Part shown: positions 19,905 through 21,477 of the stretch, in pieces
How positions within the stretch are numbered: the first letter of the stretch is position 1
How the letters are laid out: each line of letters begins with the position of its first letter
Origin: Magallana gigas
Taxonomy: Eukaryota
Length of the DNA: 64,000 nt
Direction of reading: 5' to 3'
Assembly (NCBI RefSeq): GCF_963853765.1
Contig: NC_088856.1
Span: forward strand, 25,296,001-25,360,000
Made by a program: the position numbers and the translations under genes
Notes under the pieces: generated by a model
Database searches by the model: none
Told to the model about the DNA's origin: nothing
What the model saw: the letters and a program-made list of their open reading frames with translations, nothing else

Positions 19905-21446
19905 ATGAAGAGCAGACCAATAAACTACATGTACAACTTGAGAGATAGACAACAAAAAGATCAATCTTCTGACTCACAACAATCTAGCTCAAATCAACCT
20001 ACCAATTCCAGTGAAAGCCAAATACCAAGTGAAGAGCATAATATACTAGGAAGTGAAAACAACACATCCAAGGAACACAATACAGAAAACTCTACAACCT
20101 CAAGTGAAAATACCTCATCCGAGGAACACAATACAGAAAACTCTACAACCTCAAGTGAAAATACCACATCTGAGGAACACAATACAGAAAACTCTACAGC
20201 CTCAAGTGAAAATACCACACCTGAGGAACACAATACAGAAAACTCTACAACCTCAAGTGAAAATACTACATCCGAGGAACAAAATACTGAAAACTCTGCA
20301 ACTTCAAGTGATAACAATCCATCCTTGGAACAAAATACAGAAAACGCTGCAGCCTCAGGTGTAAACAACACATCCCACGAACAAACTACAGAAAACGTTA
20401 CTGAAAATCACATAGAAAACAGTGAAAGAATTATTCTCAATATGGCCACTGGAATAAATTTAAAGAAGTTTAGTGGTAGTGAAAATGTCCACTTGTGGCT
20501 GTCCCACTTAGACAGTTGGCAGAAATTTCACAACGTGACAGACGGTGCAGCACTTTTAGCAATTGGATGCAGTTTAGAAGGCCAAGCTGAAACCTGGCTA
20601 CAAACATTGTCACCACGACAGAGAAACAATTTAACCGAGTTCAAAGAGTGCCTAAAAAACCAATTCGCCCCTCAAGAAACAAACTTTACCCTCTTGTCCA
20701 TAAGACAACAAGCAGGAGAAACTGCTGATGTGTACTTGTCTAGGGCAGAGAAAACCGCCCTTGGCCATGATTTGCCAGAGATATACAAGGTCCAATTCGC
20801 CATCCAAGGACTGGAGAACCAGGTGAAGGCAAAGGTTATATCCAAAGAGCCGAAAACATTTCAGGAACTACGCCATGCAGTGTCCCTAGCTAAAGCACAA
20901 CTAGAATGCAACACCACAGAAGACATGAACAATTTAACCCTGGTAGCATTAGCTGCTCAGCTGAAGGACTCCTTGAAAGCTGAAATTAGTGCCTTAACAC
21001 AGAGTACTTGTCAATCAAAGAACGGTCAGCCAGAACCATGGAGCAAACCACCCAACCCCCATCCTCAGTGGCAGCAATTCGCACCCCCACCACCCGGATA
21101 CAGTGTGCCAGTGTGCCAAACAAACTTTGCAGTGCCACCTACCTCCTATCAACAGCAGCCCCCAGTGCAACCCCAGGTCCAGCCATCAGCTCAGCAGTGG
21201 CCCCAAGCAACCAACAATGAACCCCAAGTGAGACAGTACCAGAGAGCAAGTCGAGTGTGCAAGGGATGTGGTAAGTTTTGTTACCCTAGATCTACTTGCC
21301 CTGCTTTTAATGTAAAGTGTTTAAGATGTTTCAGATGGCGTCATTTTGCTTCAGTGTGTCAAACCCCACAAGCACAAACTCCACACATGCCTAACACACA
21401 ATCACACAACCATCCCTCAATGTCACACCACAATTCATCATACTAG
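19905..21446 (+). CDS. gag: Gag-like ORF1 with an acidic repeat N-terminal extension, capsid region and C-terminal Zn knuckles
   Basis: Capsid-like region starts at ATG 20442 (MATGINLKKFSGSENVHLWL). Knuckles CKGCGKFCYPRSTC and CLRCFRWRHFASVC. In-frame upstream ATGs at 19905 and 19758, so the true start is uncertain. Confidence 0.85.
   Translation: MKSRPINYMYNLRDRQQKDQSSDSQQSSSNQPTNSSESQIPSEEHNILGSENNTSKEHNTENSTTSSENTSSEEHNTENSTTSSENTTSEEHNTENSTASSENTTPEEHNTENSTTSSENTTSEEQNTENSATSSDNNPSLEQNTENAAASGVNNTSHEQTTENVTENHIENSERIILNMATGINLKKFSGSENVHLWLSHLDSWQKFHNVTDGAALLAIGCSLEGQAETWLQTLSPRQRNNLTEFKECLKNQFAPQETNFTLLSIRQQAGETADVYLSRAEKTALGHDLPEIYKVQFAIQGLENQVKAKVISKEPKTFQELRHAVSLAKAQLECNTTEDMNNLTLVALAAQLKDSLKAEISALTQSTCQSKNGQPEPWSKPPNPHPQWQQFAPPPPGYSVPVCQTNFAVPPTSYQQQPPVQPQVQPSAQQWPQATNNEPQVRQYQRASRVCKGCGKFCYPRSTCPAFNVKCLRCFRWRHFASVCQTPQAQTPHMPNTQSHNHPSMSHHNSSY
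20031..20400 (+). repeat. 51-bp coding tandem repeat (17 aa, EEHNTENSTTSSENTTS), about 7 copies
   Basis: Unit AGGAACACAATACAGAAAACTCTACAACCTCAAGTGAAAATACCTCATCCG, read directly. Confidence 0.9.
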
Positions 21447-21477
21447 GGAAACGCGCCTATCCTTTCCAAGGATAGGC
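21444..21477 (+). promoter_or_regulatory. Putative stop-codon readthrough signal at the gag-pol junction
   Basis: TAG, then GGAAACGC (8 nt), then stem GCCTATCCTT / loop TCC / AAGGATAGGC. Pol continues in the same frame with no other stop. Confidence 0.75.

Follow-up and report, generated by a model that had tools for sequence, protein, structure and literature searches.

A UAG stop and covarying stem-loop conserved at the gag-pol junction of an oyster Ty3/gypsy element suggest programmed readthrough

The window analysed here, a 64,000-nt stretch of the Magallana gigas genome (assembly GCF_963853765.1, contig NC_088856.1, forward-strand positions 25,296,001 to 25,360,000), contains a complete LTR retroelement spanning 18139-30636, with three long open reading frames in the order gag, pol, env (Table 1). 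Its paired LTRs, target-site duplication, primer-binding site and polypurine tract, together with the pol domain order PR-RT-RH-IN, are those of a Ty3/gypsy element, with the exception that the LTRs (at 18139 and 28905) start with TA and not the usual TG; they end in CA and the terminal inverted repeat is otherwise intact. The 5′ and 3′ LTRs are two substitutions and two indels apart. Since gag-pol has one internal stop, env has none and the LTRs are separated by only these two substitutions, the element is a young, intact, env-carrying Ty3/gypsy. Its primer-binding-site string matched none of the available rows of the errantivirus table in Supplementary file 1 of PMC13524379.

Table 1 Positions of the element's features within the window
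Feature	Position	Strand	Basis or remark
Left target-site duplication AATA	18135..18138	.	identical 4 nt at 30637-30640
5′ LTR, 1737 nt, starts TA, ends CA, short terminal inverted repeat	18139..19875	+	LTR comparison
Primer-binding-site-like TGG..., 3 nt past 5′ LTR	19879..19890	+	sequence
gag ORF, 513 aa from ATG 19905, capsid domain, C-terminus NSSY	19905..21443	+	Pfam Retrotrans_gag E 7.9e-08; homologs
51-nt tandem repeat, 6.8 copies, encoding S/T/E/N-rich Gag N-terminal spacer	20051..20396	+	TRF
Cys-rich nucleocapsid region, CCHC knuckle at its end, 28 codons before stop	21258..21359	+	translation, tail lengths
In-frame TAG between gag and pol, putative readthrough codon	21444..21446	+	ORFs; homologous TAG at L002 2401-2403
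Slippery-type heptamer G_GGA_AAC (last G of stop + GGAAAC)	21446..21452	+	gag/pol frame; not conserved
8-nt spacer GGAAACGC	21447..21454	+	common to L002: GG (+1/+2), AC (+5/+6), G (+7)
pol ORF, 1438 codons: protease, RT, RNase H, integrase, C-terminal chromodomain	21447..25763	+	Pfam
Stem-loop, 10 bp (21455-21464 : 21468-21477), 3-nt loop UCC	21455..21477	+	folding; L002 covariation
Probable env splice acceptor: 18/20 pyrimidines, then TAG	25952..25974	+	1/275 interior YAG sites reaches 18/20
env ORF, F-type fusogen, furin-like RSKR at 26352 then hydrophobic peptide	25953..28394	+	Pfam Baculo_F E 2.3e-15
Short polypurine tract ahead of 3′ LTR	28895..28902	+	sequence
3′ LTR, 1732 nt	28905..30636	+	LTR comparison
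Right target-site duplication AATA	30637..30640	.	pairs with 18135..18138

Each LTR also carries a 71-nt perfect direct repeat twice, about 1.1 kb apart (18649-18719 and 19763-19833; 29415-29485 and 30524-30594), and a second stem, AT-rich and 9-bp palindromic, lies in the env 3′ untranslated region (28556-28577). Elsewhere in the window, two 564-codon B-box/NHL (TRIM-like) ORFs that are 90% identical (4220-5914 and 10636-12330, − strand) sit in a tandem segmental repeat of roughly 6.2-7.7 kb spanning about positions 1-15000. When the whole window was searched against Rfam, a single weak tRNA-like match came up (35299-35371, − strand); its anticodon loop is irregular, and it may be a pseudogene or the head of a SINE.

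The closest named match of the Gag protein is from Magallana gigas itself (98% identity). A second conserved ATG occurs at 20442; the segment before it (19905-20441) encodes an N-terminal peptide, conserved and M..P[IV]N..Y.LR-like, followed by a variable, low-complexity repeat spacer, and two forms of Gag, starting at ATG 19905 or at the second conserved Met, are possible. Two Magallana gigas database entries matching 20442-21443, 'kinase ifkA' (P0012) and 'C1q domain-containing protein' (P0014), consist largely of the element's Gag and look misannotated or chimeric. The chromodomain at the Pol C-terminus was recognised by Pfam (Chromo, E 1.1e-07). In env, no ATG precedes residue 102 or the signal-peptide-like stretch, and a strong acceptor-like tract lies just inside the ORF. 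Given the lack of an early ATG and the presence of the best pyrimidine-rich acceptor among 275 interior YAG sites, env is probably expressed via splicing.

The frames of gag (19740-21446) and pol (21447-25763) are one and the same, and from ATG 19905 to the pol terminator the TAG at their boundary is the sole internal stop, in agreement with the single-frame arrangement described in the initial annotation. The stop lies about 95 codons ahead of the catalytic DTG. The geometry given in that annotation (a G, an 8-nt spacer, a 10-bp stem and a 3-nt loop) held as well, except that the G is the first base of the spacer and not an additional one. All ten pairs of the stem are Watson-Crick without mismatch, with predicted pair probabilities of 0.98-1.0 for the lower nine and 0.68 for the top pair; an optional extra pair, G21453-C21479, reaches 0.33. 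No other perfect stem of at least 10 bp with a loop of 3-10 nt was found in the element's interior (19876-28904), and among 2995 interior 45-nt windows the junction ranks second in stability (-15.5 vs -15.7 kcal/mol for the best). Folding was also more stable than in shuffled sequences, with z = -2.82 for 57 nt (1 of 200 shuffles equally good) and z = -3.74 for 201 nt (0 of 200). Across both strands of the window, a stem of at least 10 bp starting at +7 to +11 follows 12 of 1433 TAG triplets.

A stop in such a position could be a nonsense mutation that disables a once fused gag-pol ORF, the hairpin being incidental or serving packaging or reverse transcription, and fused single-ORF Ty3/gypsy elements are indeed present in bivalves (the Steamer-like MchSLE-1). 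Protein relatives speak strongly against a lesion. Thirteen Gag homologs were found, six extending to the zinc knuckle and seven stopping short of it; four of the six end in NSSY exactly as in the window, and the NSSY-ending Gags include two clusters, of 30 and 22 sequences, that are just 52% identical. The other two of the six, both from Saccostrea, terminate at a similar place, in NQTC, 24 residues past the knuckle compared to 28 in the oyster element. On the Pol side, a junction-centred search among proteins of 975-3103 aa returned nine near-full-length relatives (1353-1429 aa), none of which is fused to Gag, since all start no more than 81 residues from the first D[TS]G motif.

Some proteins further away do look fused. 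Gag-like sequence was joined to protease-like sequence in 15 of the 167 proteins classified, and the 14 that were measured are distant (protease 29-38% identical). Seven of the 15 have no knuckle and resemble gene models in which the junction was skipped; in one of these, P0071, Gag-like sequence is joined exactly onto the peptide encoded by the stop-spacer-stem cassette. In P0091 a Gln immediately precedes the cassette peptide (GFAP..KGRQ) and may represent a sense codon at the stop position, whilst P0089/P0120/P0127, P0032, P0147 and P0155 read straight through from knuckle to protease with the cassette absent. Because such joined proteins exist but are this distant, the stop is the rule near this element, though perhaps not throughout the wider clade.

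A second DNA locus with the cassette provides a direct nucleotide comparison. A single scan through contigs from genomes of bacteria and archaea yielded 31 candidate stretches and, from these, two loci (L001 and L002). Both are in records of Sedimenticola metagenome-assembled genomes (MAGs) with content corresponding to animal errantivirus-like DNA, apparently through host contamination of the genome collection. L001 carries an env of the same kind (36% identical) and lacks the junction; L002 is 60% identical to the window in RT-RNase H, 34% in protease and 27% in capsid. Its Gag terminates at a TAG (2401-2403), followed by GGG TAC GTG CCT GT in the pol frame. Identity between the two loci is 11/16 over positions +1 to +16, compared with 17/60 upstream and 40/150 further downstream. 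Pairs +9 to +18 are all retained (10/10): four are the same, four altered on both sides and two altered on one side (A-U to G-U). The initial annotation had suggested looking for conservation or covariation of TAG and stem in other copies; both are seen here in a comparison of two sequences (n = 2), of which L002 is a damaged copy whose pol contains a stop and a change of frame. The L002 stem has 13 bp and a larger loop, and can be extended to +7 by one G-U and one U-A pair. Its hairpin is the most stable of 1798 45-nt windows in the contig, and just one of 111 TAGs there, the gag stop, is followed by such a stem. A tblastn search of a plasmid collection for further junction DNA gave no match. 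The L002 string UAG-GGG-UAC (2401-2409) coincides with the context reported for rice stripe necrosis benyvirus in PMC3159437.

With an identical Gag end retained at 52% identity, a homologous TAG in L002, a hairpin fixed 8 nt past the stop in both DNA loci and none of the nine close Pol relatives fused, a disabling mutation is extremely improbable, even allowing for the few distant fused-looking relatives and the P0091 Gln. The Gag ends, the L002 TAG and the unfused Pols together mark the TAG, as judged from these sequences, as a conserved junction feature and not the lesion that the initial annotation had named as its possible refutation.

Traces of the cassette were also sought at the peptide level in distant Pols. 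In the window the 3′ arm of the stem encodes DRH, in L002 SGH, giving a signature [DS][GR]H that was defined from these two alone. Of 73 Pol-only proteins, 35 extend for 30 residues or more ahead of the catalytic motif; nine of the 35 show the signature within their first 11 residues, one of them (P0002) being a coincidence within the window's own family. Thus it opens 8 of the 34 other Pol-only proteins (protease 34-42% identical), compared with 0 of 1343 other linker positions. The binomial p of 8.5e-15 for the signature counts the P0002 coincidence and ignores relatedness, and only the counts themselves carry weight. Both arms of the stem are represented in the N-termini of P0008/P0133 (MPVPKKDRQ) and P0066 (MPIQNMDRH), and P0071 and P0091 contain G[NYF][AV]P...[DG]R[HQ]. 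P0056 departs from the frame of Gag close to where Gag ends, as a comparison with P0069 shows, and continues as RLSL..RIGT, where the +1 frame of the window reads RLSF..RIGT. In a quick protease tree with a weak backbone, the 14 signature rows were spread over both main subclades; this tree (79 rows, 226 columns, many open forks) reflects spread and not the order of events, and its unlabelled rows are mostly uninformative as opposed to negative. The peptide traces are indirect, and the proteins bearing the signature are related to each other. Gln or His at Gag ends (22 of 54 vs a background of about 18%) was given no weight.

Many of these relatives carry an in-frame Met within the 3′ arm (N-termini MDGH, MDRH or MSGH), which would suit production of Pol independently of Gag, whether by termination-reinitiation, an IRES, an internal promoter, or a non-canonical bypass that needs distant elements as in Candida Tca2. 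Precedents are found in Tca2 itself and in an IRES activity reported for another bivalve element (antisense). However, the corresponding codon is AAG in the window and GTG in L002, the first in-frame ATG comes at +76 in the window (21522, the earliest in the pol ORF) and at +145 in L002, and the Met of the relatives can be accounted for by its codon pairing with a CAY/CAR codon of the 5′ arm. Reinitiation is disfavoured by the lack of a conserved AUG near the stop, and independent production of Pol is, taken as a whole, very unlikely.

Foamy viruses express Pol from a spliced RNA, and the TAG|G of the junction could likewise act as a 3′ splice acceptor, yielding Pol from a spliced message or removing the stop. 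TAG|G matches the consensus YAG|G in both loci, the predicted protein P0071 joins Gag-like sequence exactly to the cassette peptide, and the element very likely splices for env. The tract ahead of the TAG is nevertheless ordinary, with 12/20 pyrimidines in the window (equalled by 100 of 275 interior YAG sites) and 9/20 in L002 compared with 18/20 at the env acceptor, which makes splicing here unlikely. Moreover, an acceptor would not need a stable exon-side hairpin fixed at +9, and gene predictors would be expected to create introns across an in-frame stop anyway. All in all, we regard this route as highly improbable.

Sites of −1 frameshifting usually leave 5-9 nt between slippery heptamer and structure. 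A G_GGA_AAC heptamer, which the initial annotation had overlooked and which is reported to be among the most shift-prone, overlaps the stop in the phase of the gag frame, and one distant Gag (P0157) ends in ..SGNGQ, so that an active or vestigial frameshift site was considered. It was rejected: the heptamer lies past the stop and outside the open gag frame, its spacer to the stem is short, merely 2 nt, the −1 frame closes at 21473 and pol is not in the −1 frame but in frame 0. L002 has GGGGTAC in place of the heptamer. Frameshifting thereby ranks as a most improbable explanation.

The reading that we prefer, and hold to be likely with good confidence, is programmed UAG-G readthrough that a simple stem-loop stimulates and that sets the proportions of Gag and Gag-Pol. 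It draws on the geometry of the junction, the intact ORFs, the position of the stop, the spacer bases, the pairs covarying with one distant locus and the peptide traces; from these we infer the readthrough itself, its level, the inserted residue and the mechanism at the entry channel. The majority of ribosomes would terminate Gag at the UAG. Once the A site holds this codon, its purine-rich UAG-GGR context would weaken termination, and a near-cognate tRNA might be inserted a few percent of the time, allowing translation to enter pol in the same frame. MLV readthrough inserts Gln at its UAG, and by analogy the inserted residue would be Gln here too. The stem, starting at +9, would be positioned at the mRNA entry channel, an idea stated in PMC3159437.

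The stimulator would be a simple stem-loop, 10-13 bp long and variable in its loop. It would not be a pseudoknot, as the initial annotation had foreseen. Pairing between the loop and downstream sequence is at chance level: the window offers at most 3 bp in a row and L002 at most 5 bp, lengths reached by 1000/1000 and 909/1000 shuffles, respectively. Pairing of the loop back onto the stop and spacer was likewise rejected, both for 5 bp in the window (21446-21451 with 21463-21467; 552 of 5853 same-length segments, 9%, do so) and for 6 bp in L002 (onto 2401-2406; 674 of 4072, 17%). Rfam searches of the two junctions (window and L002) returned no readthrough-site family at E<=10, with three chance matches for each.

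That the combination of UAG-GGR, 8-nt spacer and stem-loop is an ancestral, clade-wide route for making Pol in a deep lineage of env-carrying retroelements of marine invertebrates is a tentative proposal, with chances slightly short of even; it draws on the occurrence of the cassette across proteases only ~34% identical and in both main subclades of the protease tree. If true, type III readthrough signals in animals would include a large and independent family that has been overlooked, and the MLV geometry would function without a pseudoknot. According to PMC13517186, readthrough in animal viruses is validated experimentally in four genera only. A conserved UAG-G with a plain hairpin would offer a natural series of variable loops and compensatory changes, which could test whether the MLV pseudoknot is essential or any stable stem at +9 is sufficient. 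Readthrough would also explain how Pol is produced in newly described, widespread invertebrate endogenous retroviruses. Annotation pipelines may call such copies broken or invent introns over the stop, and intact elements may consequently be undercounted.

By its architecture, and not by RT phylogeny, the element matches the 'ancient errantivirus' type of Chary and Hayashi (PMC13524379), with which it shares gag-pol-env organisation, an F-type env, a chromodomain and long LTRs. As described in that paper, the F-env chromodomain group occurs in Mollusca, Annelida and Cnidaria and has oyster and mussel members; the oyster element has an intact gag-pol-env with F-type env and a Pol C-terminal chromodomain. 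In the main text of PMC13524379, as available, readthrough and frameshift have zero mentions each, and likewise retrotransposon, errantivirus and gypsy in the accessible text of the 2026 readthrough review PMC13517186. We found no report of gag-pol stop readthrough in invertebrate errantiviruses in the literature within reach, which left out Repbase and most subscription papers; what is new is a type III context with a plain hairpin in an element class for which none was found reported. A survey of animal elements from 2003 reportedly lists a few stop-separated ones, and an animal precedent may exist. As cited elsewhere, the same survey has pol in the −1 frame in 28 of 51 animal elements. Further background was taken from PMC2194720, bioRxiv 2022.12.06.519325, PMC4600332, PMC5009743, PMC4402516, PMC6238403 and PMC10974842.

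The initial annotation overstated the gammaretroviral character of the arrangement, since within Ty3/gypsy a gag-pol stop that is read through was already described in fungal Tj1, Tosmo1-3 and Tcry1. These chromoviruses similarly possess a chromodomain and one-frame gag and pol split by one stop, which in Tj1 is required for activity. In the published accounts available, the stop is UGA in the context GAA-UGA-CU (type II-like), with no 3′ stem described, unlike the UAG-GG, covarying hairpin and env gene of the oyster element. A gag-pol stop is also known, via citation, in other retroelements, Dictyostelium Skipper among them. Candida Tca2 has an in-frame stop, an 8-nt purine-rich spacer and a 3′ structure, but differs in its UGA codon, predicted pseudoknot and placement in the copia superfamily. 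The Tca2 junction alone gave no readthrough in a yeast reporter, and this failure of a similar-looking junction calls for caution about readthrough in the oyster element.

A UAG-G followed by a 3′ structure constitutes the general 'type III' class, which includes plant viruses (PMC3159437), and the signal is therefore not specifically gammaretroviral. The oyster junction combines the UAG-G context with a 3′ RNA structure conserved in n = 2 loci. Tombusvirids with UAG-GGR and benyviruses, with predicted stem-loops past a spacer of ~9 nt (same source), resemble it, although the viruses and genes are unrelated and the oyster signal would control Gag-Pol of an animal retroelement. Moloney MLV (PMC13517186) shares a UAG that closely follows the nucleocapsid knuckle and precedes the protease, the UAGGGA hexamer, an 8-nt purine-rich spacer and a stem start at G+9. 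It differs in having an H-type pseudoknot where the oyster element has a simple stem-loop, and in belonging to Retroviridae and not Ty3/gypsy; the distance of about 95 codons from stop to catalytic DTG in the oyster element is a further difference. Of the functionally important MLV spacer bases G1, G2, G5, U6, C7 and A8, only G1 and G2 are kept; positions +5 to +8 are A5 C6 G7 C8 in the window and A5 C6 G7 U8 in L002. Of the gammaretroviral signal, the UAG-G, spacer and G+9 stem are thus present, while the pseudoknot and G5/U6/C7/A8 are not. Without a pseudoknot and with different spacer bases, the signal would work like that of MLV but falls outside the MLV signal family. Inheritance of the geometry from a Ty3/gypsy ancestor that gamma- and epsilonretroviruses would have in common with this element, our boldest suggestion, is a long shot, and convergence with the retroviruses is likely.
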